Shown one piece after another: positions 1,374-29,282 of a stretch of 32,000 nt of DNA. The notes under the pieces are model-generated. The model did not search any database. It was not told the origin of the DNA and worked only from the letters and a program-made list of their open reading frames with translations. Both the position numbers and the translations under genes were made by a program. The DNA comes from Methylophaga frappieri (GTDB lineage: Bacteria; Pseudomonadota; Gammaproteobacteria; Nitrosococcales; Methylophagaceae): the NCBI RefSeq assembly GCF_000260965.1, contig NC_017856.1, positions 240,001 to 272,000 of the forward strand, given 5' to 3'. Each line of letters begins with the position of its first letter. The first letter of the stretch is position 1.

Positions 1374-1379
1374 GGAAGG

Positions 1380-11754: not shown

Positions 11755-12426
11755 TTACGGTTTTATAATTCCAAGTGCTACAGCGATATTTGCCAGATCG
11801 GCCGTCGTATTTGCATTTAGTTTATTTTTGATAGTGGTGTTGTAATTGGCCACCGTTTTGTAACCAAGGTGTAATTCGGCAGCGACCTCATGCGCCGTCA
11901 AGCCTTTTGCTGTTCGACAAAAAACATCAAACTCTCGCGGCGAAAGTAATTCAACTACCTCACCATAATGCAAGGTTGCCGCGGGTTGTTTAAAATCATC
12001 AAGTCCGGGAAGTATTTCAGGGTCGATATAACGCTGACCTTGCATAACTTTTGATACTGCTTCCGCTAAAACTTCAGCGGCGCTATTTTTCGTCACATAT
12101 CCTTTTGCACCGGCTTGCATAGCACGTTCAACATAGACAGACTCGTCATGAATACTGTAAACGAGAATAATTGCCGCGGGATCTTGACGCTTTAATCGTC
12201 GAATCGTTTCCAAGCCGCCAATCCCTGGCATAGATAAGTCCATCACAACCACATCAGGGTGACTTCGTTCATACTCATGACAAACGAGCTCTCCCCGATC
12301 CACGTCGGTAATCTGACCGATAAAGGCTTGTGATGATAGCAACATACGGAAGCCCGCTCTAACGACGGCATGGTCATCTACCAATAAAACATCAATTTTC
12401 TTATCGTTCATCCTGCTGTTTCTCAT
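11755..12426 (-). CDS. NarL/FixJ(LuxR)-family response regulator
   Basis: REC domain (VLLVDDHAVVRAG..., VVVMDLSMPGIGG) plus a LuxR-type HTH (LSPREFDVFCRTAKGLTAHEVAAELHLGYKTVANYNTTIKNKL). An alternative start at 12411 (MNDKKID) is possible. Either start overlaps the kinase stop at 12401-12403. Confidence 0.85.
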   Translation of the reverse strand: MRNSRMNDKKIDVLLVDDHAVVRAGFRMLLSSQAFIGQITDVDRGELVCHEYERSHPDVVVMDLSMPGIGGLETIRRLKRQDPAAIILVYSIHDESVYVERAMQAGAKGYVTKNSAAEVLAEAVSKVMQGQRYIDPEILPGLDDFKQPAATLHYGEVVELLSPREFDVFCRTAKGLTAHEVAAELHLGYKTVANYNTTIKNKLNANTTADLANIAVALGIIKP

Positions 12427-14897: not shown

Positions 14898-17220
14898 TGC
14901 CCATCACCTCTTCAAAGGGTAAGGCTGAAATAAGATACATAAAGCTGGTATCGCCCTGCTGTCCTCTTGCCGCTAACACCGTATTCTCAACGGAAGAGGC
15001 TAACCAGCGTCCATTAATATCTTGATAATTCACAGCCTGTTCAGTGCTCGTGCTATTGAGTATCTGTAAGCCGGTCACATACATTCCGCCACGATTCCAT
15101 GAACCTAACGGTTTCGCCACAACACGATCATCGGCAAAAATATCACGCCGCATTGCGCGATCCACAGGCACAGGTTGATAAAGCGGATCCGTCACGCGTT
15201 CAAAGTCATTCGTTCGCATCATCTCGGCAGCATACTGACTCATCTCCATATAAACCGATTGTCGACTTGCTTCCGTGCGTTGTGCAGGACTCACTTGTGA
15301 TTGAGGCGACGTTACCTCTTCATCTTTATCGATAAAGCGATTAGGGAACTCGGCTGGATCCGGATATCCCTGATTATGCGATTTGTAAAACAGATTTTCT
15401 CCATCACGACGAATCGACTCACTTTCACCTGGCGTATTCATAATACGCGGGGTAATCAATAACACCGTCTCGGTCTCTTGTTCACCATCAATTGTTGAGG
15501 TAAATATTCGGCCAACGAGAGGAATTTCACTCAGCAGCGGCACTTTTCGCTCATTACGATTTTCACTGGTTCGAATCAACCCACCCACCGCAACGGTCAA
15601 ATTATTTTTGGCCATAACCGTACCGGTCAAGCGCGCTGTATCAACTGTATCGACCTGAAGGTTCGTAATACCATTTACGGTATCTCCAACAGGTATCGTT
15701 CCGCCTCCCACGTTTACAGTAGAATTTTCCTGTTCAATATACAGCTCCACTGTACCGTCGTTATTTATTCGGGGACTGATACGTAGTGTAATACCGATAT
15801 CTTCACGGGTAATCTGAGCCTCAACAAAGGCTTGTTGCAACACAATACCGTTATCAATCACAGCAGGAAAAAACTCAAATCCTTCTGTAAGTAAAGTTTC
15901 TTCACCGATAAAGAGCTCGGCAGGACGATGATTGGATGCCACCACCATAGGATTAGAAAGCACTTTGATCCGGTTCTGCTCTTCGAGAAATTGAATATTG
16001 GCTCGTAATCGATTATTCAAAAACTCGTAAACAAAAGTCCCTGAATTTAATAATGCATTGTTTCCCAGCAATACCGGTTGCTGAGATTGATTGCTTCCAC
16101 TTGGCTGGAGGGCAAAGTTGAAAATTGAGTTGATATCCTCACCCAAGATGACGTTTAAGATACGCATTTCCAGCATCACCTGAGGCACTGGTATATCCAT
16201 TTTATCAATCATCTTCTGAATGCCAGACAATACCGACTTATCATCCGTCCGGACAATGATCATATTGTGTTCATTATTGACCGTGACATAAATCGGTTGA
16301 GATTGAACAGTGGTTTGCTGCAGGGTTTCCTGACTGACATTTCGGCTGCCAGTCAATTCAATCGCTTCGGCTATTTGCGAAATCTGATCAACACTCAATT
16401 CTTCAGCATCAAGCTGCGTGCCCGACTCAATAAAATTATTTCGGCCAAAACCACTACGGCTACTGCCAATACTGCCAAACCCACGACGTGATGATGTGCT
16501 ATTTCTGACCGAGCGGTTATTTCCTCGAACTGAACCAAATCCGCTGCTACTGTTTCCAAAGCCACTACTGTTTCCAAAGCCACTACTGTTACCAAAGCCA
16601 GTATTCCCAAAGTTATTAGAAGCCGGTGGTAAGCCCAGAGATAAGATTACTCTTGGGCCATAAATGTCTTCGATCGCCTGAGCAAGGATCTGCACATTCG
16701 CATTCAATAGCCGAAATATTTCTATATTTTCGCTTTCGCGGATAATCAGGTCTTTGCTGTATTCTTCGCGCGTCATTAACCTAAAAGTATTCGTGTCATC
16801 ATCATAGCGATACCATAAATCGCTGATTCGACTGATCGATTTCACGGCATCTAAGATCGAGGTATTTTTTAGATGGATGGTCACCTCACGGTTCGCCGCT
16901 TCACGCGTGGCAATAATATTGTGATCACTTAATTCCGATAACGCACGCACCACGTCGCTCATATTGGACCCGTTAAACTCAATCTCCTCAATCATCGTGG
17001 TGTTATCAACGTCCGGTCCTTCCTCCTGTACCGGAATCAATGTTGGCGCACGATTACCTGGCACGACAGGCTGTTGCGCGGATAGCGTCGTCGTATTTTG
17101 GGGATTAGCAATTGCCGGTCCTTGCTCACCAGACACAACGCCGCCTCCCCAAACTGGTAACACCACCATCCCGAATAAACTGGCATGGATCACACTGGAC
17201 AATAACTTCATATTCATCAT
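14887..17220 (-). CDS. secretin (GspD/PilQ/MshL superfamily) with FG/GS-rich linker and long C-terminal extension
   Basis: 777 aa with a signal peptide and N0/N1-like domains (IEFNGSNMSDVVRALSELSDHNIIA...). The secretin core signature is NNLTVAVGGLIRTSENRNERKVPLLSEIPLVGRIFTS...VLLITPRIM. ATGA overlap with the upstream gene at 17217-17220. Confidence 0.85.
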   Translation of the reverse strand: MMNMKLLSSVIHASLFGMVVLPVWGGGVVSGEQGPAIANPQNTTTLSAQQPVVPGNRAPTLIPVQEEGPDVDNTTMIEEIEFNGSNMSDVVRALSELSDHNIIATREAANREVTIHLKNTSILDAVKSISRISDLWYRYDDDTNTFRLMTREEYSKDLIIRESENIEIFRLLNANVQILAQAIEDIYGPRVILSLGLPPASNNFGNTGFGNSSGFGNSSGFGNSSSGFGSVRGNNRSVRNSTSSRRGFGSIGSSRSGFGRNNFIESGTQLDAEELSVDQISQIAEAIELTGSRNVSQETLQQTTVQSQPIYVTVNNEHNMIIVRTDDKSVLSGIQKMIDKMDIPVPQVMLEMRILNVILGEDINSIFNFALQPSGSNQSQQPVLLGNNALLNSGTFVYEFLNNRLRANIQFLEEQNRIKVLSNPMVVASNHRPAELFIGEETLLTEGFEFFPAVIDNGIVLQQAFVEAQITREDIGITLRISPRINNDGTVELYIEQENSTVNVGGGTIPVGDTVNGITNLQVDTVDTARLTGTVMAKNNLTVAVGGLIRTSENRNERKVPLLSEIPLVGRIFTSTIDGEQETETVLLITPRIMNTPGESESIRRDGENLFYKSHNQGYPDPAEFPNRFIDKDEEVTSPQSQVSPAQRTEASRQSVYMEMSQYAAEMMRTNDFERVTDPLYQPVPVDRAMRRDIFADDRVVAKPLGSWNRGGMYVTGLQILNSTSTEQAVNYQDINGRWLASSVENTVLAARGQQGDTSFMYLISALPFEEVMGNAR
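16534..16612 (-). repeat. in-frame 18-nt tandem repeat encoding (GFGNSS)n inside the secretin gene
   Basis: The plus strand shows CCAAAGCCACTACTGTTT / CCAAAGCCACTACTGTTA / CCAAAGCCAGTATTCCCA, preceded by the degenerate copy CCAAATCCGCTGCTACTGTTT. This translates on the minus strand to NTGFGNSSGFGNSSGFGNSSSGFG. Confidence 0.8.
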
Positions 17221-17660
17221 CTTAAAACGCGAATCCGGCCTAATGTACCGGTTTCAATGGTTATACTCAGACGGCTGATTTCCGAGATTCGAATTGCGCT
17301 GGCTGGTTGACGTGGGTCAATATTAATTTCGTCTCCTTCCCGCACCATGAAAACACCACTACCGGCGATATCCAATAAAGCCAGTTCTTCGCCAGTTTCC
17401 TTTTCCGTAATTAATCCACGCAAGCGCATTCGTGGTATTTGAAAATCAGGAATATCTCCGGGACGAAAACCAAAAGCATCACTGCCAATATTCGATAGGG
17501 TCCCGGCCTGTTCATACATCAACGCACTTGGCGTAAACGGATCACGAATCGTCACTTCCGATGATTCGCCAAGACTCACTGGCTCAAAAGCCATTGCTGA
17601 GAGTGGCATCCAAACGGAACAAAGCCCTATTAAAATCGGAATGTTAGGTTTGCTGTACAT
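17217..17660 (-). CDS. periplasmic PilP / GspC-HR / MshK-like secretin-coupling protein (putative)
   Basis: 147 aa with signal peptide ...PLSAMA/FEP. The C-terminal beta-rich segment LRGLITEKETGEELALLDIAGSGVFMVREGDEINID resembles PilP/GspC HR domains. It sits between the platform and secretin genes, abutting the platform stop (TAAATG) and overlapping the secretin start. Confidence 0.45.
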   Translation of the reverse strand: MYSKPNIPILIGLCSVWMPLSAMAFEPVSLGESSEVTIRDPFTPSALMYEQAGTLSNIGSDAFGFRPGDIPDFQIPRMRLRGLITEKETGEELALLDIAGSGVFMVREGDEINIDPRQPASAIRISEISRLSITIETGTLGRIRVLR

Positions 17661-18884
17661 TTATCTTCCTCCGCCAGCCAGAGCGAATAAAGCCTGAAAA
17701 AAGGCGTAATAGACAAAACCCACCATGCCGCCAATCAGTAATATCATTGCCGGCTCAATCATTGCTGAAAGGCGTTTTATCGCGATCTCCAACAGACTTT
17801 GATAATAAACACCCAGCTCCTGCAAAATCTGATCTAGTGAGCCTGTTCGCTCACCGATGGCAATCATTTGTGTCACAAGGGGAGGCATTTTTCGATGTTC
17901 TATACTTGAAGCCAGATCCCGACCGGCAAATACCCGATCCGATGCAGAGCGCATCGTATCGGCATATATTTTGTTAGCGATCAAGTCTGAGGTAATTTTC
18001 AACCCCTCAAAAATCGTCACACCACTGCGTAACAAAATGGACATCGCCCAATTCATCTGGGCCATGGAGCCATAAACAATCATCGGCCCAAATACCGGAA
18101 AACTCAGTAAAATCCGGTCTATCAGGCGTCTGCCTTTGTAAGTTTTGTAAATAATAAAAAGTAAAATTGTGGTGACAATCGCCGTGCCGATTATAAATAA
18201 TCCGTTTTCTCTCAAATAGGCAGCACCATCAATTAAACTTTGCGTCGACGCCGGTAAAGGCCGGTTTTGTCGTTCAAGAAACGTGGCAAATTTCGGAATT
18301 ATCGCGACCACCATAAAAGTCGCCACCCCGATGGCTGCAATCACAACGACAACCGGGTAAATCATGGCATTGATCATTTGTTTTCGAAGCTGGGATTTTT
18401 TTTCTAAATGAATCGCCAACCGCTCCATGATGACATCCAGCTCCCCGGTATTTTCACCTGCCACCACCAGATTGATAGCGATATCACTAAACACATCATT
18501 ATGTTTTTTTAGTGCAACCGATAATGATTTTCCGGCCTGAATATCACGATGCATCTTCCGAATAGCAAGATTAAGCCGCGGACTCGTAATTTGATTTGAT
18601 GCCAGCTCTAAGCATTCCGCCACAGCTAACCCCGCGCGGAGCATAAACGCCATCTGCCGATAAAAGAAAATCAGGGAATCATTAGAAACAGAGCGTTGTG
18701 TTGCATACCAGTCTGCAAAGGTATCTTGCCCTAAAAATCCACGACGTTTTTTCTCGTTAATTTTTAAAACGCGCAGCCCTTCGGTTCGCAGTGCTTGCGC
18801 AGCTGCATTCAAGTTATCCGCATGCAACTGCCCAGCACGTTCTGTACCTGTTCGGGTGAGTGCTTGATAAGCAAATACCGGCAT
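17661..18884 (-). CDS. type II secretion / type IV pilus inner-membrane platform protein (GspF/PilC/MshG family)
   Basis: 407 aa with a duplicated T2SSF-type architecture: two cytoplasmic helical domains, each followed by TM segments. The conserved GERTGSLDQIL (GExxGxL) motif is present. It follows the ATPase gene after a 1-nt gap. Confidence 0.9.
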   Translation of the reverse strand: MPVFAYQALTRTGTERAGQLHADNLNAAAQALRTEGLRVLKINEKKRRGFLGQDTFADWYATQRSVSNDSLIFFYRQMAFMLRAGLAVAECLELASNQITSPRLNLAIRKMHRDIQAGKSLSVALKKHNDVFSDIAINLVVAGENTGELDVIMERLAIHLEKKSQLRKQMINAMIYPVVVVIAAIGVATFMVVAIIPKFATFLERQNRPLPASTQSLIDGAAYLRENGLFIIGTAIVTTILLFIIYKTYKGRRLIDRILLSFPVFGPMIVYGSMAQMNWAMSILLRSGVTIFEGLKITSDLIANKIYADTMRSASDRVFAGRDLASSIEHRKMPPLVTQMIAIGERTGSLDQILQELGVYYQSLLEIAIKRLSAMIEPAMILLIGGMVGFVYYAFFQALFALAGGGR

Positions 18885-18885
18885 A

Positions 18886-20535
18886 TCAGGTCACCGTGGC
18901 CTTTTGTATCTGCTTGAACAAGGCCACATTTTTAACTTCATCTAATGTGGTTAAGCCCCTAACAACTTTTTCACAGCCATCTTGCCACATAAACTTCAAG
19001 CGTGAACCGGCACTGGCCTCCAGTGTCTCTTCATCTGCACCACGCGCAACTAAACGGGCTAATTTCTCATCAAACCAGAGTGTTTCAAATAAGCCCAACC
19101 GGCCTCGAAATCCTTGTCCCTGACACACCGCACACCCAACAGGCTCATATATTTCCACAGCCACTTCACGACCTAATAAGGCTAATTCTTCTTCGGTGGC
19201 TGCTCGGGGTTGCGCGCAATGACGGCAAAGTCGTCTGACAAGACGCTGTGCAATAACAGCGGTCATCGTTGAGCCAATCAAAAACGGTTCACAGCCAATA
19301 TCGACTAAGCGCGTCACCGCACTGACGGCATTGTTTGTATGCAATGTAGAAAAAACCATATGCCCCGTCATCGCCGCTTTAACCGCCACATCGGCGGTTT
19401 CTGCATCACGAATCTCCCCCACCATTAAGACATCGGGGTCATGTCGCAGTAACGAACGCAACGCGTCGGCAAAATTGATTTTAGGGCCAGTTTGAATTTG
19501 CGAAACCCCATCAATCACATATTCAATCGGGTTTTCAACGGTCATAATATTAATATCTGCCGCATTGATTTCCTGCAGCGCGGCAAACAAAGTAGTCGAT
19601 TTACCACTTCCCGTTGGCCCCGTCAGCAAAATCATGCCATATGGCTTTCTTATTGCCTCTTGAAACGCGGCCAAATCCGCTTCAAGAAAGCCTAGGTCGG
19701 TGAGCGTCAAATCACTACTTTCTTGTCCCAGTAGTCGCATGGTGATGCGTTCACCATGTCGAATAGGTGCGGTAGCGACCCGGATATTAAATTCCAAATC
19801 AACGGGGGGGCCAAGATAATAGGTAAACCCACCATCTTGCGGCATCCGTTGCTCCGCAATATCCAATCCAGCCAACACTTTGACACGCGAAATTAGCCCC
19901 GCAGCCATACTGATATCACTCTCCAGGGGATAATCCGTTAATTTTCCATCAACCCGAAACCGAACACGCAAACCGTCATCCTCGGCCATAAAATGCACAT
20001 CGGATGAACGATTAAGATAGGCATCACGCAGTATCCGATCCAATAGCTCAATCAAGTCGGTTTCGGTTGATTCCTGACTGCCCGATTGAGCCTGCACAAT
20101 GGCTGAATTGGCTAATTGGCGTTTGACCATTAATTGCAACTGAGCCGGATCTGCCATCACCACTGGCAAATCACGTCCCATTAATCGGCGAGCTGATTCC
20201 GTCCCATTTCGATCGTGCGGGTCTCCTGTGACCAATAAATCCTCACCATCCAAAATGATTGCTAACAACATTTTGCGGTGAACCAAACTGGCCGGCATTT
20301 TTTTGGTTAAAACCGTGTTGATTTGAGCATGCTGTAAATCGACAAATGGCAACCCTTGCTCTTGGGCAAGAGCACGATGCAGCGCGGAGAGTGGAATACG
20401 ATATTCCGCTAAAACCTTACCCAATATGGGCGTACGCTCACGACGGGACTTGATACGCAGCTCATCAATTTCCGGCTGGGCCAACAGGCCGGTATCGATT
20501 CCTGCTTTTATCAATTGGTCATCGGTTATCGCCAT
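18886..20535 (-). CDS. type IV filament assembly ATPase (GspE/PilB/MshE family)
   Basis: 549 aa with a T2SSE_N-like N-terminus (ILGKVLAEYRIPLSALHRALAQEQGLPFVDL). Walker A is GPTGSGKST, the Asp box/Walker B is DPDVLMVGEIRD, and the His box is TGHMVFSTLHTN. A tetracysteine zinc motif is present (CRHC...CAVC). A GAGAGTAGG Shine-Dalgarno sequence precedes the ATG. Confidence 0.9.
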   Translation of the reverse strand: MAITDDQLIKAGIDTGLLAQPEIDELRIKSRRERTPILGKVLAEYRIPLSALHRALAQEQGLPFVDLQHAQINTVLTKKMPASLVHRKMLLAIILDGEDLLVTGDPHDRNGTESARRLMGRDLPVVMADPAQLQLMVKRQLANSAIVQAQSGSQESTETDLIELLDRILRDAYLNRSSDVHFMAEDDGLRVRFRVDGKLTDYPLESDISMAAGLISRVKVLAGLDIAEQRMPQDGGFTYYLGPPVDLEFNIRVATAPIRHGERITMRLLGQESSDLTLTDLGFLEADLAAFQEAIRKPYGMILLTGPTGSGKSTTLFAALQEINAADINIMTVENPIEYVIDGVSQIQTGPKINFADALRSLLRHDPDVLMVGEIRDAETADVAVKAAMTGHMVFSTLHTNNAVSAVTRLVDIGCEPFLIGSTMTAVIAQRLVRRLCRHCAQPRAATEEELALLGREVAVEIYEPVGCAVCQGQGFRGRLGLFETLWFDEKLARLVARGADEETLEASAGSRLKFMWQDGCEKVVRGLTTLDEVKNVALFKQIQKATVT

Positions 20536-20552
20536 GCCTACTCTCGACTACC

Positions 20553-21215
20553 CTACAACGCTAAAACCAGATCGGTTTTTAATAATTGCGACATACCACG
20601 TAAAGGCGCCACATCCAGTTTTTGAATGTTCACCTGCACCACCGTGACCTGATAAGGCAACTCATCCAACCCATAAATAAATCGTCTCAGAGAGGGAAAA
20701 TCACCATCAATTTCTAATCGTTGCATGGGTCTGGCATACATGGATCCCGGTGACAGCCGTCTTATCCACCCTGCCTCTGGCGGCACAATAATTTCTTCTG
20801 AGCTGGTATTATTGCGTCGATTATTACCCAGTCGAACCGGATCCGGACGCAAATTTTGATTCACCCGAATCCGAATTCCACTATCTCTGGCTAACTCGGA
20901 AATGCGTACCCGTAACTCCTGCGAATCAATCGGTGCCAAGAGCGTTTCCACCTGCTGGGCATTTTCACGCACCGCATCAAGGGCTTTTTCCAAATCATCC
21001 AACTCGGCATTGATATCGTCGATTTTCTCGCGTGGCTCTTCCGGTATTTCCATTGTGGAGATTCGATTCATGGTAGCGTTCTTTTGACGCTCTAAGGCCG
21101 CGATTTGTGTTGAACGTGGGTCATAGCGCAAATAACCATACCCGCCTAACAACACCACAACCAAAATGGCACCCGCCAGCCATTTTTCCCGTTGATTTAA
21201 TTGTTTTAATTTCAT
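20553..21215 (-). CDS. bitopic PilO / GspM / MshJ-like alignment-complex protein (putative)
   Basis: 220 aa. It has a short cytoplasmic N-terminus, one TM segment (WLAGAILVVVLLGGYGYL), a coiled-coil region, and a C-terminal alpha/beta region. ATGA overlap with the upstream gene at 21212-21215. Confidence 0.5.
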   Translation of the reverse strand: MKLKQLNQREKWLAGAILVVVLLGGYGYLRYDPRSTQIAALERQKNATMNRISTMEIPEEPREKIDDINAELDDLEKALDAVRENAQQVETLLAPIDSQELRVRISELARDSGIRIRVNQNLRPDPVRLGNNRRNNTSSEEIIVPPEAGWIRRLSPGSMYARPMQRLEIDGDFPSLRRFIYGLDELPYQVTVVQVNIQKLDVAPLRGMSQLLKTDLVLAL

Positions 21216-22981
21216 GGCGCTTCCTCTTCAATCGGCACCACATGCAAGATACTCATCGATACGGAATAACCACTCATGTTCATCGGACCGATTTTTTCAA
21301 ACACTTGAATATCACGAACCTCCATATCCCACGCTGCCACTGCTAACTTCATATTTTGCACAAATTCCTGACCGGCACTTTCAGTCAAAGCCCAAGCATC
21401 AATATTGAAGTTATCTTTAACAATATGGCCCGGCCGCACTGCGGTCGGAGCAGTATCTGCCTGCACACCAACCCGCCGCCCCATCTCATCTATCCGGTTG
21501 ATGATGATTTGTTCGTTAACGGTATTCTGGATAATGCCCAGCACTGCCTGCACCATCAGTGACCGTTCTGGCATTTCTTGCCCAAAGAAATCCAGCCGTG
21601 ACTCCATCCGGCGCTGACTCTCCTGTTGGGCCTCTAATTCTGCTTGACGCTTATCAATCTCTTCGCGCTGTGCATTAATTCTGGCAACCGCATCATCAAG
21701 CACCTTGGCGCGGGCGTCGATTTCTGCTTTTTCTTTACTGACGTTGTTGTGTTGAATAAACATCACCAGTTCGGCAACCAAAATCAACGCAATAAGGCCA
21801 CCCACCAGTAATGCCGCCTGGTTTTCCTGACGTTTTAATGGCGGCGGCAAGGGGCCCCCCTGACGGATTAAACTAATGCGTTTACCGCCTTTTAAATTGA
21901 AAATATGCCGTGCAGCAGCCATCACGCCCGGCGATAAATACTCCGGATTTTGACTTGGCAAAAGTGACACTTCATGGCCAATCGCTTCTTTAAACTGGGC
22001 TTGCAAATCTGGCAGATTATCGGTCGGACAACTCAGCAAGATTGCTGGATGCTGAGTCAGATTTTCACTGTGATAGGCTTCCAGACAAGCATTGAGCATT
22101 GACTCGGTATGATTCAGGAGATGCCGAACCGAGACCACATTTTGACGATGAAGACGCACTGCCGTCGTGGTGAGTGATGAGGTTTCTAAAATCAACGCAG
22201 ACTTATCGGTTTGCTCCAATAAAGCCAGACTATTGCCAGTCAGCGGCATCAAACCAAGCAACGTTAAATCATGATCATCACACAGCGTTGTCCATTTTTG
22301 GATGGATGAGCTATACGCGGCGCTGACTAACCAGTTCCATACACCGGGCGCATCATCAACCTCACCCTGAGCTGACCAGCCACATTGCACTTCATCATCT
22401 TCATCCCGGAGCCAATCCTGTACCACAAACAAAGATTGAACCTGTTCACGACTGACATAGCCCAGATCCATGGCCAATTCGCCAAACCGTTTGGTTGGGG
22501 TGCGATCAACCGAACGTGGCGCGCCAGTATTTTTGGCTTGTCGTTTTTGAATATCATTGATTTCGACTATTTGCTCATGACTTAACATGCCATGTAATTC
22601 GAGCAAAAAGCCAAGTGTCCATTGAGCTTGATGTTGCATCAAAAGCGGTTCTACTTCCCAGCGAACCAATTCGTGCATTTGCTCAACCGGTTTCGGTTTT
22701 TTGGCCGACACCGGTAATTCAATAATCGCATTCATGGCAGATGGCGTCAGCACCACAACATGCTTGCCTTTCCAGCCCTGCTGGCGCACAGAAAGTAACA
22801 CATGCTCAAATGCCTCAGCCGGATCCAGATGATCGGCTTCCGCCTCTGCTGAGATATACAGGCTTTTCCCTTTTCGACCAAACACGGTACCCCGCAGGAG
22901 CCTCGCATCCCACTCGCAGATAAGAATTTGATGACTGTGAATTTTTGCAAAATGAGCTTTTATATCGTCAACTAAACTCAT
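21212..22981 (-). CDS. PilM+PilN fusion / GspL / MshI-like bitopic protein (putative)
   Basis: 589 aa. A cytoplasmic region of ~385 aa carries PilM/GspL-like strings (VLTPSAMNAIIELPVSAKKPKPVEQMHELVRWEVEPLL). It is followed by one TM segment (ALLVGGLIALILVAELVMFI), a coiled coil, and a periplasmic domain of ~120 aa. Confidence 0.55.
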   Translation of the reverse strand: MSLVDDIKAHFAKIHSHQILICEWDARLLRGTVFGRKGKSLYISAEAEADHLDPAEAFEHVLLSVRQQGWKGKHVVVLTPSAMNAIIELPVSAKKPKPVEQMHELVRWEVEPLLMQHQAQWTLGFLLELHGMLSHEQIVEINDIQKRQAKNTGAPRSVDRTPTKRFGELAMDLGYVSREQVQSLFVVQDWLRDEDDEVQCGWSAQGEVDDAPGVWNWLVSAAYSSSIQKWTTLCDDHDLTLLGLMPLTGNSLALLEQTDKSALILETSSLTTTAVRLHRQNVVSVRHLLNHTESMLNACLEAYHSENLTQHPAILLSCPTDNLPDLQAQFKEAIGHEVSLLPSQNPEYLSPGVMAAARHIFNLKGGKRISLIRQGGPLPPPLKRQENQAALLVGGLIALILVAELVMFIQHNNVSKEKAEIDARAKVLDDAVARINAQREEIDKRQAELEAQQESQRRMESRLDFFGQEMPERSLMVQAVLGIIQNTVNEQIIINRIDEMGRRVGVQADTAPTAVRPGHIVKDNFNIDAWALTESAGQEFVQNMKLAVAAWDMEVRDIQVFEKIGPMNMSGYSVSMSILHVVPIEEEAP

Positions 22982-23172
22982 GCGTTTATCCTGAACTGCA
23001 GATAGGGGGTGGTCAGTAACATTGCAAGCAAGCCATTGGCATAGCTTACTGCTGCGTATGGGGAATAATCTTGCTCGTCAATTTTGGGTAGCAAAATTGC
23101 TGTATCAGTAATGATCGGAACACTCCATTGCACCCTACTTATGCTTAATGAAGAAGCGATATTTTTAATCAT
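22978..23172 (-). CDS. small hypothetical protein (64 aa) embedded in the filament operon
   Basis: With the ATG at 23172 (MIKNIASS...), the ORF makes ATGA overlaps at both ends: 23169-23172 with the 529-aa prepilin stop and 22978-22981 with the next start. It has a C-terminal hydrophobic stretch GLLAMLLTTPYL. I recognised no family. Confidence 0.4.
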   Translation of the reverse strand: MIKNIASSLSISRVQWSVPIITDTAILLPKIDEQDYSPYAAVSYANGLLAMLLTTPYLQFRINA

Positions 23173-24758
23173 AAGCCTCCCCAAAAAAGTGGTTCAGGCT
23201 TAAGCGGTATGCTCGCTCTTGGCACGGCAAAAACTTTTTTTGTAGCAGTTGAAAAGTTACCTTGTTCACAACTAGCGTCGGCATAAACGTACCCGTTACT
23301 ATCACAAACCACTGTCAGGGTATGGATGCCGGCAGGTAGTCTTAAAGAGGCTGGAATAGTTAAATCATTACCGTTTTTAAGTGTACCGGGTGGCACGGCA
23401 AAAGTGTCTCCTGACAATGTCATCACGATGTTATTTTCCAGCGTGAATGTTTCTGAGACCGTTATCTCTGCCCCACCAAGAGTAACTTTACTATCTATGA
23501 CTTCACTACTACTTCCAGCCGGTAAGTCCACTGTAGTATCACCCGGTAATGTCAGTGTCGTCCCGGTAATATTGCTGCCAGGCGGTACATAAATAACCCG
23601 CTTTGACAGGTTACTGGCAATAAAACCTACAACCGCGGTAGAGGCTGTCAATTCCGCGCCTGATGTTGTTGTGACAGTAGAATGATTACCATCTGGTAAT
23701 GGCGATGTTCCATCTGAAGTTTGTAAGTTTGTCATTTGAATTGTGCAGCCACCGGCACAATACGGTGCTATTTGATATTCATCAATATAATCTTCTGGCT
23801 GCGGAGTTACTTCGTCGGTATAGCTAATTACTGTGCCGGGTTGAAGTGTGATTTCATTACCTGCTTTATTCACTGGTATTGAAAATTGAATAAATTCTAA
23901 ATCGGCAACTGGCACAACAATATTCCCAAACTCATCGGTCTCCATGTCAAGGGTTGGGAAAACTGCCGATAGTGATAAATCTAAATCGCGCTCAGTTACT
24001 GTGGCCGGCCATTGAGGTGGTGCTCCATTTTCTGGAAAATTTAATTTCAGCCTGAAATTCGGAGGGGGATCCTGAAGTGGAAGAAAGTTTATAAAGGCAG
24101 CAACGTTTATCCAGTCATTACCAACCGTGACGGTAAAATCATTTAGTTCCAACAATGTGACACTGATATCGTCACTGTTGCTTGATAAATCCAATCCATT
24201 ACTGGTGATATCAACTTGACCACTAAACGCATCGACCTGATAAATCCAGCCATAGTTCAGATGATCCTCGACTGGGTCAGCATCAATATTGTTATAGCCA
24301 TCACGAAAGCTTTTGATACCACTACCTTCCTGATTCGCCCTTAAATAAGGGCCACGCCAGCCAGCGCCAGAGCCTGTTGCCGGATCCAGTTGCCAAATGC
24401 GAATATCATTAGACGGATCATTATCACAGGACGATTCGAAAATACCATTTTCCAGCGAGACAGCGGCACCTAATTCAACTAATTCTCTCAGGCACAACGG
24501 TAAACGGCCCACATCTGAAACAAAACCACTTAATTCAGGCGATCCATTCACTGTTCGACTAGTATCCCCTGCAATTGCTTGTTTAATCAGGTCCAACCGT
24601 TGTTGGGTTTCATCAAATTGCGCCTGTTGTTCTATATTATCGGTAAATAACAAACCGGCAGAAGCCAGCAAACCAACCAAAAATAAAACCAGCACCATCT
24701 CCAGCAGGGTAAAACCGCGAGATTGGTGAAGAGATGACATTGAGGCCCGTATCGTCAT
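23169..24758 (-). CDS. large prepilin-type (class III signal peptide) protein, candidate minor/tip pilin
   Basis: MTIRASMSSLHQSRG/FTLLEMVLVLFLVGLLASAGLLF matches the G/FTLxE prepilin cleavage-methylation motif with Glu5. The mature part is ~514 aa, rich in Thr/Ser/Val/Asn beta-type sequence, with several Cys pairs. Confidence 0.75.
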   Translation of the reverse strand: MTIRASMSSLHQSRGFTLLEMVLVLFLVGLLASAGLLFTDNIEQQAQFDETQQRLDLIKQAIAGDTSRTVNGSPELSGFVSDVGRLPLCLRELVELGAAVSLENGIFESSCDNDPSNDIRIWQLDPATGSGAGWRGPYLRANQEGSGIKSFRDGYNNIDADPVEDHLNYGWIYQVDAFSGQVDITSNGLDLSSNSDDISVTLLELNDFTVTVGNDWINVAAFINFLPLQDPPPNFRLKLNFPENGAPPQWPATVTERDLDLSLSAVFPTLDMETDEFGNIVVPVADLEFIQFSIPVNKAGNEITLQPGTVISYTDEVTPQPEDYIDEYQIAPYCAGGCTIQMTNLQTSDGTSPLPDGNHSTVTTTSGAELTASTAVVGFIASNLSKRVIYVPPGSNITGTTLTLPGDTTVDLPAGSSSEVIDSKVTLGGAEITVSETFTLENNIVMTLSGDTFAVPPGTLKNGNDLTIPASLRLPAGIHTLTVVCDSNGYVYADASCEQGNFSTATKKVFAVPRASIPLKPEPLFWGGL

Positions 24759-24765
24759 CGCCCAA

Positions 24766-25596
24766 TTACCGCAACAGACACAGAATCAGATCATCGCTTC
24801 CGGCAGGCGGGACACACATATCATCAGTAGCCAGATCATATTCATCACTGGCACTTTCCAACACGCCATTCTCCCCCGTGCTGACTAAGCGGACAATATT
24901 GCCCGGAATAATATAATCGGCCGGTAATGCGCCGTCTGTGACCGACTGACAGTTATAGAGATCTGTTGTCCCATCTATCGCCAGTTGACCGGTTACGGTC
25001 GCATGTTCTTGACAATACACGGTTTGGTTGTAGTCCAACTCAGGGTCAAGCAACCGATAACGGTTACCCCAGCCATCCGTCAACGCCTCTTTTGATATAT
25101 AAGGGCCATTCCAGCCAATCTGCCGCGTGCGGTCCCAAAACAACACGCTATGTGCCGCTGCATCATAAGGAAACACGTTTAACATCAAAAGCGCATGACT
25201 GGCTTTGTCTGCCCCACCTGAGTTAGCCTGGGATTGACACCAGGTGTGCCAGTCATCTCTATCGGTATCAGATGGAAAAAGATAGCTACCGCTAAATTGG
25301 TTGCCGTAAGCATTTTCAAAATCAAATGGATTATATTCACCGTCGCGGTAAACACGACAAGGCAATTCGCGGTTATCACGGCGGAATTGCAGCAAGGCTT
25401 TTTGCAGCTCGACCATTTCCAGTCGCGTCACGTTGAATCGAGCCTGATCTTCATTGCCCTCAAAGGCATTCAGCGCCGCAACACTAATCACCGCCAGCAA
25501 CGTAATCACCAACAAAATTTCGATTAGGGTAAAACCCTGCTGTGACTGTCTGCCAGCCGAAAAACTGAGGAGTCGGTTAAACAATAAACGCCGCAT
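24766..25596 (-). CDS. prepilin-type protein (GspG/pseudopilin-like N-terminal region), 276 aa
   Basis: MRRLLFNRLLSFSAGRQSQQG/FTLIEILLVITLLAVISVAALNAF. This is followed by the pseudopilin-like helix LEMVELQKALLQFRRDNRELP. The leader is 21 aa. Confidence 0.8.
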   Translation of the reverse strand: MRRLLFNRLLSFSAGRQSQQGFTLIEILLVITLLAVISVAALNAFEGNEDQARFNVTRLEMVELQKALLQFRRDNRELPCRVYRDGEYNPFDFENAYGNQFSGSYLFPSDTDRDDWHTWCQSQANSGGADKASHALLMLNVFPYDAAAHSVLFWDRTRQIGWNGPYISKEALTDGWGNRYRLLDPELDYNQTVYCQEHATVTGQLAIDGTTDLYNCQSVTDGALPADYIIPGNIVRLVSTGENGVLESASDEYDLATDDMCVPPAGSDDLILCLLR

Positions 25597-25719
25597 TTAC
25601 TTGTTCCCGATTGTGGTCATTTTGTCAGTGCGCTAAGCACACCCCCTGACGCTGCATAACATCCTGTTGATACAAAACGTTCTGCAAATATGCAAGATAT
25701 TGGCGCAACGTTCTGGTTG

Positions 25720-25750
25720 ATAAAGAAAGGGCGGACCAGGCCCGCCCTTT
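25720..25750 (-). terminator. Rho-independent terminator immediately after the 337-aa prepilin gene
   Basis: The minus strand reads AAAGGGCGG-GCCTGGT-CCGCCCTTT followed by CTTTAT. It lies 27 nt after the TAA at 25777-25779. Confidence 0.7.
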
Positions 25751-25776
25751 CATATTTCTCAACTTAAGCGATGAGA

Positions 25777-26790
25777 TTAATCATCATCACCTGCTGAAGA
25801 TTGGTTGGCTTCAGAAACCAACTGGTCGATGTTTTTACCATCGGTAGAAACAATCGTGATCAAACGCAGTTGATCATTCCATTCCCATTCATTATCTACG
25901 TCGTCATATTGACCGGCGTGGAACAGACCGATATAACGCGAATAGTGAATTTCTGGGTTAATCGCGGTATCACCGTCACCAGTTGTCGCGATGTAAGATG
26001 GTGATTGGGCAATCGCCACATTACTAAAGGCGGTAGAGGCCGCAGCATCACCACCAAAGCCCAGCGCGATCAGCGCATGACATTCGTCACCTTCCAGCGC
26101 ATCACCATAAGCATTTTGCAGTTCGTTATTAGAGATTGAAACAGTTGGGTCAAAAGCAGCAGCTGGATAACCACCGGCTGCACCGAAAGTAGTACATTGC
26201 GGGCTAGGAACTACCGCAAGGCTGACCGGAAAATCACCATCTTCGATTTCTACTTCTGCTGAAAGGCCCGCACTTTCGTTATGCATACGGTTTGGTGCGC
26301 CGGTTGGAGAATCATCAACTTCGGCAGCAGCTAAGACTTCTTGCAGCTCTTCAATACCTGACTCTTCAAACATTTCAACCAAAACAGCATCAAGACCAGC
26401 TGAACCAGCGACATCCCATTCGCCGAGGAAACCTTTCATGCCAGAAGCAGCAAAGGTCAGTTCATCGCCAGCCGCATCCATCAGGGTATCCCATTGATTT
26501 GGATAGACATTTTCTACCGCACGGTAGGTCCGAATTGCACGGTCAAGTGTCCCGATTGTATTCGCAGCTTGGGCTGCTTCCGCAGATTCACCAACATTTT
26601 CGTAGGCAACCAGCGCACCTGTTGCCAAAATAGCGATCAGGGTGATAACAACTAATAGCTCAAGTAAAGTAAAACCTTTTTCTTTACCTTGCAGTTTTTG
26701 CGCTTTGGCACGCAGTTTTGCATCTTTGATGACTGACAAATCCGCTTTACGGAATTTGGCAATCGCCGATTTCATTTGATTGATATTCAT
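25777..26790 (-). CDS. very large, highly acidic prepilin-type protein with a 39-aa basic leader (candidate major filament subunit)
   Basis: The leader is MNINQMKSAIAKFRKADLSVIKDAKLRAKAQKLQGKEKG, followed by /FTLLELLVVITLIAILATGALVAYEN. The mature part is 298 aa, with only about 8 Lys/Arg against several dozen Asp/Glu by my count. It has one Cys pair (SPQC...DEC) and its own terminator downstream. Confidence 0.8.
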   Translation of the reverse strand: MNINQMKSAIAKFRKADLSVIKDAKLRAKAQKLQGKEKGFTLLELLVVITLIAILATGALVAYENVGESAEAAQAANTIGTLDRAIRTYRAVENVYPNQWDTLMDAAGDELTFAASGMKGFLGEWDVAGSAGLDAVLVEMFEESGIEELQEVLAAAEVDDSPTGAPNRMHNESAGLSAEVEIEDGDFPVSLAVVPSPQCTTFGAAGGYPAAAFDPTVSISNNELQNAYGDALEGDECHALIALGFGGDAAASTAFSNVAIAQSPSYIATTGDGDTAINPEIHYSRYIGLFHAGQYDDVDNEWEWNDQLRLITIVSTDGKNIDQLVSEANQSSAGDDD

Positions 26791-26952
26791 CGAATAATCT
26801 CTCTCTTTGATGCCGCAGCTACCCCGAGCAGCCTGTTGGCTAAATGGTTAAATAAAGATTCAAACTGATGTGACCCCTTCACACTCATGGTCATCAAAGT
26901 AATGTGGTGAGCCGAGTTACAATGTTTGTTTTGCTGATTCACGCCAAACCCC

Positions 26953-27147
26953 TCAGGCAGACTGCGGTGCATCAATGACAAACCGGTACTGCTTACCACA
27001 ATGTAGAATCACTTCTTTTTGATGACGCTTGAGGATCCGTACCTCAACCCGAATATCGCCATAACCATCATGGGCAAGCACCTCATCAACCAAATCCATC
27101 AGCTTAGCTTTTACCGGCTGTGAGGAATTTTGACTGGTTAATGACAT
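26953..27147 (-). CDS. small YezD/DUF2292-like protein (64 aa from the ATG; the track ORF starts at an upstream TTG)
   Basis: MSLTSQNSSQPVKAKLMDLVDEVLAHDGYGDIRVEVRILKRHQKEVILHCGKQYRFVI. The G-x-hydrophobic beta-hairpin pattern resembles YezD-type mini-proteins (...YGSVxIxIxxGxVVxIExxEKxR). The ATG at 27147 is preferred to the TTG at 27168. Confidence 0.4.
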   Translation of the reverse strand: MSLTSQNSSQPVKAKLMDLVDEVLAHDGYGDIRVEVRILKRHQKEVILHCGKQYRFVIDAPQSA

Positions 27148-27168: not shown

Positions 27169-27488
27169 TTTTCGGTGACTTGGAGTGTAGAAGAGTAAGG
27201 AAGTTTTTCCCTATAGGAAATATTCCTGAATTTGGTATTTTTTCACATTTTTACAAAGCCATTACTTTTATTTATTATTTATCAGACACTTAAAATAGTT
27301 TTAACCAATCGTATAATTTTTATTTAGGCCGACATTATGTCTAAACGGGAAGTATTTCCTGCAAATAAACGTGAATTCCCGGAATTAATTAAGGATTAAA
27401 TCGATCAAAACATCGAGACAATAGCCAAAAAATTCCTGTAATTCTCCCTACAGAACTACAGGTGAATTTTCTTCACGCTTTTCTTTGA
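27169..27488 (-). promoter_or_regulatory. AT-rich 320-bp control region with clustered GGAA/TTCC palindromes upstream of the filament locus
   Basis: GGAAGTTTTTCC at 27199-27210, TTCCCTATAGGAA at 27207-27219, GGAAATATTCC at 27216-27226, and GGAAGTATTTCC at 27348-27359. A perfect 13-bp palindrome AATTCCCGGAATT lies at 27374-27386. No long ORF is present on either strand. Confidence 0.4.
27423..27462 (-). terminator. weak candidate terminator after the PglL-like gene
   Basis: The minus strand reads CCTGTA-N16-TACAGG followed by AATTTTTT. The stem is short (6 bp plus 3 interrupted bp), so it is tentative. Confidence 0.3.
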
Positions 27489-29282
27489 CTATTGATCAGA
27501 TTTATTCGGGGTATCAGGCTGATAGGGATCCTGCACGATAATTAACACGGGCAATAATCGATCTTCGCCACGCGCCACGCGCTGCAACACAAATCGATGG
27601 AATTTTTCCCGATACTCAGGATATTGCTTTATCGCTTTACGCATCATCTGCTGCGCTTCAACCGGCTGATCATTAACCGCCAGAAGATAGGCATGCATAT
27701 AGGTTTCGAGTCGTCCTGGCCAGTTTTCGACAACCAGCTGGCTCAAGCTCAGCTTATCAGCATAAAAAGGCTGACTATTCGGCAAGACTCGGACGAAAAA
27801 ATTATCGGCGTAATGAGTAAAGAGGGTTTGTCTACGCAAGTCGTTAAACTGCACCAGGTTTGATTCAACCTGCTCAGGTGATAAGCCTTCTTGTCTCAAT
27901 TTGGTAATCGATTGTTCAAGCTGCTTATAGTCATGAACAATGCTGCCCAGTGTCCAACATCCGAACACGAATACCATGATAAAACACACTGGCGCCAGCC
28001 GGAATCTGGTTGATAAGGCATTCTCGGAGGATAAGCCAATCAGCAAGCTCGCAAAGGCAAGAAAGTGGCTATACCACAACGGAAACTCTAATAAGCTATG
28101 CGCGCCAATAATGCCAAGTAAGGCTAATAGCCACCATTTTTCAACGGTTAATTTGCTGGTAAATTGGCCAGCGAACCAATACACCACCCCCGCCAGAAAT
28201 ATCAGGCCACCGATGAGGCCGGTTTCTGCAAAAAGCTGGGCAATAATATTATGCACATGCCCCCACATGCCTTTCAGGCTCGGGTATTGTTCGGTCAAAT
28301 TATAGTTAAACCACGGGAATTCTGCCCAGCCAATCCCCAGCCATGGGCTGGATTGAAACGCCCGCCAGCCTTGCTCTAACAAAATAAGCCGTGTTGATTC
28401 CCCGCCTAGCGTATTCATCATGCGTTTGGCAGGCACAGTGGCGGGATCTAAAAAGGTTAAATATGGCACTAAAACCTGCGCCACAATAAAAGCGGGAATA
28501 AGCCATAAAAGCTGAGCAGGTCGTATAGGCAAAGGGTGTGATTTAGCAATCGGTTTTAGGAGAAGCCAGCCCCCCACTGAAATCAATAGGACATACAAGA
28601 TCGCCATCCGCTGACCTGCCTGAGCAAGGCCAATTAAAAATAAAGCGATTAAAATAAGCAGCAAAGTTTGCTTAAGACGATGGGTAAAATACAGATACAA
28701 CACGGAGGCCATCGCTAAGGCGATATAGTTTGAAAAATGATTGACTTGGCCGATATTGCCAGCGCGTCCATCCAATATCCAAGGCGCCAGCATGTGTGTC
28801 TGCGGAATAAATTTACTGATAATGAGCAAAACCATTATTAATGTTGCGCCGACAGTAAAAGCCCAAGCCAAGGTGGGCACCACTTTTTGTACGGTCAATA
28901 CATGCCGAAGATTGGCGCCCAGTACGATCATCAGGGCAGCAAACCCCATATAGAGCATGGCAATAAATTGATTTTGCCAATAGTCGGGTTTCAATACGAC
29001 AATTTGCAGACCTAACACCACGATGAGTAATAAAGGTACAAAGGTCATGACCGGTATTTGAAATGTTGGGCGGTTTCGACCCACCAGAAATAATGTTGCA
29101 AACACACCAAACACAGCGGTAAGCCATTCTTTATAGAAGCTGGCGATGGGCGGTACGTGATACGTCACTAAAAAAGGGACGGCGATCATGAGTGAAAGAC
29201 AGATCAAACTGGCAATACTGAGCAGCGTATGTTGATTAGCTGACTGTTCGGTCGCTGAGGCGTGCATGCTCTCTCCTGGCAT
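27489..29282 (-). CDS. O-antigen ligase / PglL-family polytopic membrane protein with C-terminal soluble helical domain (candidate pilin O-oligosaccharyltransferase)
   Basis: 597 aa with at least 10 hydrophobic helices. A Wzy_C-like loop region (GQRMAILYVLLISVGG ... WLGIGWAEFPWFNY ... HNIIAQLFAETGLIGG) is present. The C-terminal ~150 aa are soluble and TPR-like (YLLAVNDQPVEAQQMMRKAIKQYPEYREKF), as in PglL-type ligases. Confidence 0.65.
   Translation of the reverse strand: MPGESMHASATEQSANQHTLLSIASLICLSLMIAVPFLVTYHVPPIASFYKEWLTAVFGVFATLFLVGRNRPTFQIPVMTFVPLLLIVVLGLQIVVLKPDYWQNQFIAMLYMGFAALMIVLGANLRHVLTVQKVVPTLAWAFTVGATLIMVLLIISKFIPQTHMLAPWILDGRAGNIGQVNHFSNYIALAMASVLYLYFTHRLKQTLLLILIALFLIGLAQAGQRMAILYVLLISVGGWLLLKPIAKSHPLPIRPAQLLWLIPAFIVAQVLVPYLTFLDPATVPAKRMMNTLGGESTRLILLEQGWRAFQSSPWLGIGWAEFPWFNYNLTEQYPSLKGMWGHVHNIIAQLFAETGLIGGLIFLAGVVYWFAGQFTSKLTVEKWWLLALLGIIGAHSLLEFPLWYSHFLAFASLLIGLSSENALSTRFRLAPVCFIMVFVFGCWTLGSIVHDYKQLEQSITKLRQEGLSPEQVESNLVQFNDLRRQTLFTHYADNFFVRVLPNSQPFYADKLSLSQLVVENWPGRLETYMHAYLLAVNDQPVEAQQMMRKAIKQYPEYREKFHRFVLQRVARGEDRLLPVLIIVQDPYQPDTPNKSDQ

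Follow-up and report, generated by a model that had tools for sequence, protein, structure and literature searches.

The gene at the centre of this study lies on the minus strand of a 32,000-nucleotide stretch of the Methylophaga frappieri genome (NC_017856.1, positions 240,001–272,000; hereafter the window) and encodes Q7C_268, a large and strongly acidic prepilin that we consider to be the probable major, i.e., most abundantly made, subunit of a distinct type IV filament machine. This reading is favoured because three independent proxies agree, namely codon bias, a separate transcript end and a regulatory region of its own. Q7C_268 defines a new pilin family, and the machine encoded with it probably forms a new branch within the type IV filament systems. 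To our knowledge, the family has never been studied, and a search of the literature on Methylophaga pili returned nothing usable.

Q7C_268, carried in databases as a hypothetical protein, is a bona fide type IV pilin-like protein with a class III signal peptide, a type characterised by a hydrophilic leader with Gly as its last residue, after which come some 20 hydrophobic residues with Glu at +5. Its cleavage site, KG/FTLLELLVVITLIAILATGALVAY, has Phe at +1 and Glu at +5, and both Pfam N_methyl (PF07963; 33.5 bits, cutoff 21.2) and NCBIfam TIGR02532 (30.4 bits, cutoff 16.3) recognize it. In an alignment of 90 sequences, residues G39, F40, T41, L42, L43, E44, L45 and L46 are all invariant, which agrees with the canonical G/FTLLELLVV cleavage-methylation site named in the initial annotation of this gene. 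The same annotation had described a 39-residue basic leader with nine lysines and two arginines, followed by an extremely acidic mature part of 298 aa ending in ...SSAGDDD and about twice as large as an ordinary pilin, and these features were all recovered. By composition count, basic residues (9 Lys and 2 Arg) outnumber acidic ones (2 Asp and 1 Glu) in the leader M1–G39 (net charge +8, isoelectric point (pI) 10.5), whereas in the mature part F40–D337 (298 aa, 31.3 kDa) only 2 Lys and 6 Arg face 25 Asp and 25 Glu residues (net charge −42, pI 4.05), with the caveat that the other two prepilins of the cluster are likewise acidic (pI 4.1–4.5). As to size, 1,955 surveyed type IVa major pilins measure 141 ± 25 aa with a range of 42–297 aa, and the largest solved one, Myxococcus xanthus PilA, has 208 aa (PMC11046646). 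The single Cys pair proposed earlier was confirmed as C199 and C237. Every sequence of the 90-sequence alignment has both, although they are not invariant in the wider family; however, the two residues are 38 and not about 45 positions apart, and the pair is located 100 residues from the C-terminus.

A word-indexed search returned 547 homologues, nearly all of 320–355 aa, and an exhaustive profile search, with one representative per 50%-identity cluster, gave 215 hits at E < 1e-10, of which 50 had E < 1e-30. The open reading frame (ORF) is not a chance one, being identical to Q7C_268 and having many homologues. A scan of one genome per species identified at least 226 relatives, and 80 loci were kept for comparison. 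The family is common among marine and freshwater methylotrophs and methanotrophs, as well as in wastewater Accumulibacter, Azoarcus and Dechloromonas, i.e., among bacteria that live in flocs and biofilms. The close family, which shares the same globular domain, includes proteins from Methylophaga, Methylotenera, Methylophilus, Methyloprofundus, Methylococcaceae and a methane-oxidising endosymbiont, whereas the wider family extends to Neptuniibacter, Amphritea, Neptunomonas, Colwellia, Azoarcus, Accumulibacter, Dechloromonas, Propionivibrio, Thiodiazotropha and one Verrucomicrobium. Within the kept set, the members of the close family (loci L001–L025) come strikingly often from methylotrophs and methanotrophs, which belong to two proteobacterial classes (Methylophaga, Methylophilaceae and Methylococcaceae), suggesting horizontal spread within this guild or a function tied to it. 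A homologue with 51% identity (P0110) was assembled in a transcriptome project on marine eukaryotes (MMETSP) and presumably derives from an associated bacterium; it is weak evidence for appreciable transcription of the family. It should be noted that the highly methanol-induced island of Methylotenera mobilis JLW8 described as a unique pilus or type II secretion system (PMC3728764) is unrelated, as its gene table corresponds to a Tad/Flp system with Flp pilin, CpaB and TadE.

Among the 23 genes of the window, the effective number of codons (Nc) is lowest for the Q7C_268 gene (37.1), the other 22 genes ranging from 45.7 to 61. This bias recurs in the related loci: of 67 loci compared, 41 have their lowest Nc among the 5–8 cluster genes in the pilin gene, and the mean difference is −5.5. 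The 3' end of the gene is followed by a terminator-like hairpin (25725..25751) that combines a 12-bp GC-rich stem (−22.5 kcal/mol, z = −3.7) with the downstream sequence CUUUAUC, and a comparable hairpin with a T-tract was found 3' of the orthologous pilin gene in approximately 62 out of 79 loci, in support of the downstream terminator that had been assigned to this gene alone. The pilin gene thus carries a conserved codon-bias and terminator signature of high and separate expression. Furthermore, a BLASTP comparison of all ORFs of the kept loci with the window proteins demonstrated that the whole cluster is syntenic and that the pilin is always encoded by the first pilin gene. By these indirect proxies, the earlier assignment of Q7C_268 as the probable major subunit gains support; the initial interpretation as a whole is substantiated in part.

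Several observations weigh against this assignment. The second prepilin of the cluster has a GspG-like motif and could be the real fibre subunit. The globular domain of Q7C_268 is unlike any known pilin head by Foldseek, and its 298-aa mature part is at or beyond the size of the largest surveyed type IVa major pilin, so that packing of this subunit into a filament is unproven. In addition, the U-tract of the terminator is imperfect, the low Nc could partly reflect base composition or gene history, and no prepilin peptidase (peptidase A24) gene was found within the 32-kb window. Finally, all co-occurrence counts given in this work are confounded by phylogeny, as the loci that combine a short leader with the absence of s71, a small gene located upstream of the pilin gene (see below), mostly belong to one clade centred on the Methylophilaceae.

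The GspG-like motif points to an alternative in which the machine resembles a type II secretion system (T2SS), with the 276-aa prepilin building a short pseudopilus in the periplasm and the 337-aa protein serving as a minor, tip or cap component. Such an arrangement would fit the match of the second prepilin to Pfam T2SSG (33.4 bits, cutoff 21) and its GspG-type N-terminus, the best scores of the secretin against GspD (137 bits, compared with 97 bits for PilQ) and of the ATPase against GspE, the weak resemblance of the M-like protein to T2SSM and the unusually large size of all three prepilins. We nevertheless regard it as unlikely. Codon bias singles out the 337-aa gene and not its 276-aa neighbour (Nc of 37.1 versus 50.7; 53.1 for the third, 529-aa prepilin) and does so across loci, and it is again the 337-aa gene that has the terminator-like hairpin on its 3' side and the dedicated regulatory region on its 5' side. 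The T2SS hallmarks GspC, GspH, GspI, GspJ and GspK are absent from the cluster, with all equivalog models scoring below cutoff, and the PglL-type enzyme encoded nearby is a known feature of surface pilins (PMC3643930).

The globular region of Q7C_268 has no match in Pfam even at E ≤ 10, and a search of PDB sequences with a hidden Markov model profile gave no match beyond the α1 helix of the mature part. The models for GspG, GspH and PilA align to the first 40–60 mature residues only, far under their cutoffs, and the N-terminal segment of this helix (α1-N) is the only one matching solved pilins. The predicted structure has a predicted local distance difference test (pLDDT) score of 81.5, with values of about 90 over residues 100–250 and a predicted template modelling score of 0.74, the only low-confidence loop being formed by residues 251–270 (pLDDT 49–53). 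A Foldseek search of the PDB with this model found no match at E ≤ 0.001, and the best pilin was 1oqw (E = 5.6). Across the family, the mature part behaves as a single homologous unit, and the initially suggested fused functional domain could not be made out in Pfam, PDB sequences or Foldseek.

The same results bear on a second alternative, according to which Q7C_268 is an unpolymerised large acidic protein of the periplasm or cell surface that uses the pilin N-terminus merely as an anchor or export signal and is presented or released as a substrate-like cargo. A globular region without similarity to any pilin head and a size at the extreme of known major pilins are what such a cargo would lead one to expect. 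On the other hand, no segment of the protein is better conserved than the α1-N helix with Phe+1 and Glu+5, on which polymerisation depends, the signs of high expression suit a building block used in stoichiometric amounts, and no catalytic or binding domain was detected with Pfam. We therefore consider a cargo role to be improbable, even more so than the T2SS-like arrangement, and retain the major subunit as the preferred reading.

Conservation of the leader was assessed by comparing the Q7C_268 gene with 14 orthologues that also have 39-codon leaders. Nucleotide differences at codon positions 1, 2 and 3 amount to 106, 72 and 217 over the whole leader and to 44, 31 and 96 in codons 1–17 alone. 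The first ATG is conserved, and a GAGAGA Shine–Dalgarno-like motif is kept 8–15 nt upstream of it in 14 loci. The 39-residue leader is translated from this first ATG. A start at the in-frame ATG of codon 6 or the TTG of codon 18, which would make the long leader an annotation artefact as the initial annotation had allowed, is very improbable: even though one homologue from a transcriptome assembly was called from M6 and natural relatives with leaders of 6–18 aa exist, codons 1–17 evolve as coding sequence, the segment MNI.QMK..I.KF is kept at the amino acid level while the DNA diverges, the Shine–Dalgarno-like motif is positioned for the first ATG, and a start at M6 would still give a 34-residue leader.

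Purifying selection acts more strongly on the leader than on the exposed mature domain. In the 90-sequence alignment, identity reaches 81% in the leader, 89% in α1-N, 73% in the helix's C-terminal portion (α1-C) and 53% in the globular part; in an alignment of 18 distant relatives, the leader retains 48% identity versus 21% for the globular part. The leader motif ..KF..xD.S.IKD..LRAKa.KLqaKqGG, contained in leaders of 37–46 aa, is kept in distant relatives despite their diverged central globular region. AlphaFold predicts two short amphipathic helices in the leader (residues 3–14 and 24–35, pLDDT 73–81). Most likely, the leader acts as a strong "positive-inside" topogenic signal, and since specific hydrophobic positions are conserved as well, it is probably also a small cytoplasmic helical module that contacts some partner before cleavage. 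The long leader is not universal: a clade centred on the Methylophilaceae and a few other members possess leaders of 6–18 aa on the same acidic domain, and at locus L081 an in-frame stop codon limits the leader to 15 aa. That the leader is conserved above the mature part suggests a role of prepilin leaders other than in topology, which may have a bearing on all long-leader pilins.

A basic propeptide that neutralises the acidic subunit, as had also been proposed, is unlikely. In prepilins, the globular domain is found in the periplasm but the leader on the cytoplasmic side, where the peptidase acts (PMC10191384), a charge of +8 is too small to compensate for one of −42, and the short-leader relatives are acidic too (net charge −13 to −37). 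The acidity is a trait of the whole family and is stronger in its marine members.

The third proxy for high expression is the region upstream of the pilin gene. The gap between s71 and the pilin gene is 162 nt, and this leader region, given as 160 nt in the initial annotation, proved to be more than a spacer, as it holds two conserved and covarying hairpins, HP1 and HP2, in the 5' untranslated region (UTR). In a 14-sequence alignment, 98.1% of the hairpin cells pair and seven of the eleven pairs have changed on both sides; none of 500 shuffles reached the observed values, and control positions obtained by sliding the hairpins pair at 26–53%. We further scanned the 170 nt preceding the pilin ATG across the family for loops NNGGG(N) on a stem with a minimum of 5 bp. 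At least one copy was found in 52 of the 56 loci with s71 (mean 1.34) versus none of the 16 short-leader loci that lack s71. Given a background of 0.033 copies per 170 nt (2.74 Mb), this corresponds to an approximately 40-fold enrichment in the s71-positive loci. The stems differ wholly between clades (GUGUGA, GCGAC, GCCAGG, GCUCC, GUUCCC, GCUUUU, GCCAUA), with the loop being kept. All 73 hairpin copies, found in 55 loci, are on the sense strand and none on the antisense strand, which speaks for an RNA element rather than a DNA operator. The evidence for the hairpins is purely comparative, since the fold of the whole UTR is not unusually stable (z = +0.24). Searches of the UTR against Rfam gave nothing at the gathering threshold and nothing at E ≤ 10.

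Two other explanations of this region were rejected. HP1 resembles a CRP-type DNA site (TGTGA-N6-TCACA), but its spacer is 5 nt, the stems differ between clades with the loop kept, and the element is strand-specific (73 versus 0 copies). A sigma-54 promoter upstream of the pilin gene, read by eye, does not have fitting spacing.

The s71 protein has 236 homologues, all of them annotated as "hypothetical", which also occur in the methanotrophs Methylobacter, Methylomonas and Methylotuvimicrobium. Among 28 diverse homologues, 27 positions are invariant, with the core HDG[FY]GDIRVEV[KR]ILKRxQKEVILHCGKQYRF, and the predicted fold consists of one helix and a basic three-stranded sheet. It has no match in Pfam, NCBIfam or PDB sequences and no significant Foldseek match; a resemblance to YezD/DUF2292 was confirmed by no tool. 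The s71 gene is located upstream of 50 of the 54 long-leader pilins versus approximately 4 of the 21 short-leader ones. However, s71 and the hairpins also accompany leaders of 10–15 aa (loci L023, L076–L078 and L081), so the tight link is that between s71 and the hairpins, and the idea of s71 as an obligatory partner of the long leader is weakened. The long leader is almost confined to the background with s71 and hairpins, and any dependence is one-way. Judging by these patterns, s71 and the hairpins are a candidate module for post-transcriptional control of pilin expression, in which a role of the leader is speculative. In an extended form, s71 would be a small RNA-binding protein of a new kind reading the NNGGG hairpins, and the basic helical leader of 39–45 residues, either uncleaved or as a peptide freed into the cytoplasm by the prepilin peptidase, would bind s71 or the hairpins. 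We view this three-part feedback as doubtful; if true, the circuit would tune pilin translation to the rate of prepilin processing and assembly, and we know of no pilus system with such a circuit. The small protein and the GGG-loop hairpins preceding the pilin gene would, in either form, constitute a possible new control mechanism of pilin expression and a candidate new cis-regulatory RNA motif.

Upstream of s71, in the same orientation as the pilin gene and conserved at this position in the close family, there is a gene for a PglL-type O-oligosaccharyltransferase-like protein, whose PglL_A match (24.2 bits) is just under the cutoff of 25. Of 31 genomes, 21 are known to have a pglL homologue that adjoins the pilin gene it targets, and an Ala-Ala-Ser-Ala-Pro context favours glycosylation (PMC3643930). 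Within Q7C_268, the near-invariant segment GFGGDAAAST (aa 244–253) leads into the low-confidence loop 251–270; D248, A249, A250 and T253 are invariant and A251 and S252 nearly so in the 90-sequence alignment. An adjacent PglL-like gene was found in 14 of the 16 loci whose pilin has a DAAxST motif versus 3 of the 52 loci with other pilins, counts to which the confounding by phylogeny applies. The DAAxST loop, with S252 and T253, is a likely O-glycosylation site of the adjacent PglL-like enzyme, and the pairing provides a new candidate glycosylation acceptor.

The coordinates of these elements and of the remaining cluster genes are listed in Table 1. The pilin gene heads three prepilin genes (337, 276 and 529 aa), which are followed on the same strand by genes for the assembly machinery, the downstream genes all abutting or overlapping.

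Table 1. Positions within the window of the pilin gene, its elements and neighbouring genes
Feature	Position	Strand	Basis or remark
Prepilin gene, 337 aa	25777..26790	−	ORF and translation; 100% identity to Methylophaga frappieri Q7C_268; probable major subunit
Leader peptide M1–G39, 39 codons	26674..26790	−	composition, alignment, codon-position bias, AlphaFold helices; cut between G39 and F40
Mature N-terminus F40–N65, FTLLELLVV..., hydrophobic α1-N helix, Glu at +5	26596..26673	−	invariant residues
Acidic globular region, aa 94–337	25780..26511	−	without recognised family or fold
Cys199 codon (26194–26196) to Cys237 codon (26080–26082)	26080..26196	−	probable disulfide pair
D248-A-A-A-S-T253 motif	26032..26049	−	start of low-confidence loop; candidate O-glycosylation site
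GAGAGAGA, Shine–Dalgarno-like motif	26798..26805	−	8–15 nt before ATG; same distance in 14 orthologous loci
HP2, GGCUGC[UCGGG]GUAGCU	26817..26833	−	5 of 6 pairs with changes on both sides
HP1, GUGUGA[AGGGG]UCACAU	26868..26884	−	compensatory changes, conserved NNGGG loop
Terminator-like hairpin and U-rich tail	25716..25751	−	26 nt after stop codon
s71 (Q7C_270), 64-aa cytoplasmic protein	26953..27147	−	directly upstream of pilin gene in most loci; candidate hairpin binder
Terminator-like hairpin of PglL-like gene	27435..27462	−	hairpin search
PglL-type O-oligosaccharyltransferase-like membrane protein	27489..29282	−	Wzy_C_2 8.5e-50, Wzy_C 3e-16, PglL_A 2.8e-5
Second prepilin, 276 aa, GspG-like motif	24766..25596	−	N_methyl and T2SSG hits; Nc 50.7
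Third prepilin, 529 aa, probably minor or tip pilin	23169..24758	−	N_methyl; Nc 53.1
Assembly machinery	14887..22981	−	589-aa protein, GspM-like 220-aa protein, GspE/PilB-like ATPase, GspF/PilC platform, 147-aa protein, secretin
GspE/PilB-type ATPase with N-terminal MshEN	18886..20535	−	MshEN 29.7 bits, cutoff 23.1
Secretin, 777 aa, C-terminal DUF3438/TIGR03749 domain	14887..17220	−	family-model matches
Pom-family (Protochlamydia outer membrane protein) gene	13767..14897	−	E 2.9e-110; overlaps secretin 3' end by 11 nt
HisKA_3 sensor kinase and LuxR-type response regulator	11755..13744	−	flank the cluster
Sucrose-phosphate synthase/phosphatase fusion and sucrose-6-phosphate phosphatase genes	516..3515	−	outside the cluster; fit compatible-solute synthesis in a marine organism

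Within the machinery, the 589-aa protein has no family and is called L-like, and the 220-aa protein is called M-like from its weak, below-cutoff match to T2SSM. The ATPase scores 356 bits against GspE and 340 bits against PilB. As it is closest to these two families, and as the equivalog models are below cutoff for the cluster proteins, the machine can be placed, by profile comparison, near the T2SS and type IVa pilus part of the type IV filament superfamily and outside the curated families. MshEN is the cyclic di-GMP-binding module of MshE-type ATPases, and its presence here hints at cyclic di-GMP control of assembly. The DUF3438/TIGR03749 domain of the secretin is otherwise known in integrative conjugative elements.

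The prepilins of the cluster are all very large (276, 337 and 529 aa). The second of them carries the GspG-like motif DGWGNRY and, in loci L001–L017, a conserved and unusually hydrophobic leader of 20–21 aa (M[RW][CFR]LLF...). The distant clusters (L026–L077) have one or two extra ATPase-like genes of approximately 360–450 aa, located between the M-like gene and the main ATPase gene and after the platform gene, which are not present in the Methylophaga cluster. The kinase and regulator pair also flanks the related loci L008, L013, L015, L017, L019–L021, L025, L032, L036 and L080. The periplasmic part of the kinase has a weak similarity to LapD_MoxY_N (19.9 bits, under the cutoff of 25), which is the sensor domain of MoxY, a regulator of methanol oxidation. 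Outside the cluster and unlinked to the pilin, the window contains genes for methionyl-tRNA synthetase (MetRS), Hsp20 and IscS/IscU, as well as fumarate reductase/succinate dehydrogenase-like genes.

Taken as a whole, the cluster would encode a filament machine related to type IVa pili and T2SSs. Pilin expression would probably be set after transcription start by the two GGG-loop hairpins of the 5' UTR, to which s71 may bind, and the hairpin after the stop codon would reduce transcription running on into the minor pilin genes. Following what is established for prepilins, the protein would be inserted into the inner membrane via the signal recognition particle and Sec with its leader in the cytoplasm, and a prepilin peptidase encoded elsewhere would cut after Gly39 and probably methylate Phe40. 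The GspE/PilB-like ATPase could then polymerise the 31-kDa acidic subunit through the subunit's α1 helix, with extrusion via the secretin. The co-occurrence pattern further suggests that the PglL-like enzyme may O-glycosylate Ser/Thr residues of the flexible DAAAST loop.

Bacterial type IV filaments comprise six classes, for which leader length and pilin size serve as rules of thumb. Among the type IVa pilins, M. xanthus PilA (208 aa mature; PDB 8TJ2) is similar to Q7C_268 in Phe+1, Glu+5 and the GFTLxE motif and in its enlarged C-terminal globular region, and the ATPase and platform found here are of the corresponding PilB/PilC–GspE/GspF type. In contrast, type IVa pilins (PilA/PilE, KEGG K02650) have leaders of approximately 5–10 aa, that of M. 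xanthus PilA having about 12 aa or fewer, compared with 39 aa here. The mature part exceeds the surveyed maximum of 297 aa, no similarity of its globular part was detected in sequence or fold (the best pilin hit being the above-mentioned 1oqw), and the distance of the Cys pair from the C-terminus also departs from the type IVa pattern, in which the head consists of α1 lying against an antiparallel sheet and a disulfide-closed D-region at the C-terminus. The curated type IVa models are not passed (NF041775 PilA_Myxo, 18 bits versus 400; PRK10574, 24.8 versus 138), and the cluster lacks the PilM/N/O/P/Q and PilT set.

Long leaders of 15–30 aa define the type IVb pilins (PMC10191384), and the 39 residues found here go beyond this range. 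The cluster shares with type IVb systems (TcpA, CofA/LngA, BfpA) a long Lys-rich leader, a larger subunit and a major pilin gene that comes first, with a very large minor pilin next. Like the genes described here, those of type IVb systems form a single compact cluster; their machinery includes an ATPase of the BfpD/TcpT clade and a dedicated prepilin peptidase from the same operon, their minor pilins CofB and TcpB have approximately 430–520 aa, and residue +1 is Met, Leu, Val, Ser, etc., and not Phe. Here, however, position +1 is occupied by Phe (F40 is invariant in the 90 homologues), the ATPase is remote from BfpD (130 bits versus 356 for GspE), the cluster has no peptidase gene, and the leader is longer (39–45 aa) and conserved in sequence over a wide family. 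Membership in type IVb is ruled out by Phe+1 and the ATPase relationship.

With GspG of the T2SS, Q7C_268 shares the class III signal peptide and α1 helix, next to GspE-, GspF- and GspD-like machinery. Its match to TIGR01710 (30.9 bits versus a cutoff of 88.85) covers residues 38–101 only, i.e., an N-terminal stretch of 64 residues, the protein is 2–3 times larger, and the cluster has three prepilin genes and no GspH–K set; identity with GspG was rejected on account of the TIGR01710 score and the missing Gsp gene set. Similar to the pilins glycosylated by PglL/TfpO (Neisseria PilE and Acinetobacter baylyi ComP), the pilin gene is adjoined by a PglL-type gene in the same orientation, and the protein has an Ala/Ser-rich flexible segment (AAAST...AQSPS), its glycosylation being a prediction. 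Different from those systems are the s71 gene and the terminator-like hairpin between the PglL-like and pilin genes, as well as the PglL_A score slightly below cutoff.

For the s71/hairpin module, the GGA-loop hairpins of CsrA/RsmA and the N peptide/boxB pair of phage lambda offer analogies. Common features are short hairpins near the ribosome-binding site in the 5' UTR, often in two or more copies, whose loop is conserved and rich in purines while the stems covary freely, and the pairing with a small basic protein, binding by s71 being putative. In contrast to CsrA, the loop is NNGGG and not A(N)GGA, and s71 has no sequence similarity or significant fold similarity to CsrA or to any solved protein. 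Altogether, the family breaks the rules of thumb, combining a type IVa-style cleavage site and a GspE/PilB-type motor with a leader longer than that of type IVb pilins, a subunit about twice the usual size and an unrecognisable head. By gene content and order, its arrangement appears most similar to that of type IVb systems, built on motors of the type IVa/T2SS type and with a predicted PglL-type glycosylation as in Neisseria and Acinetobacter.

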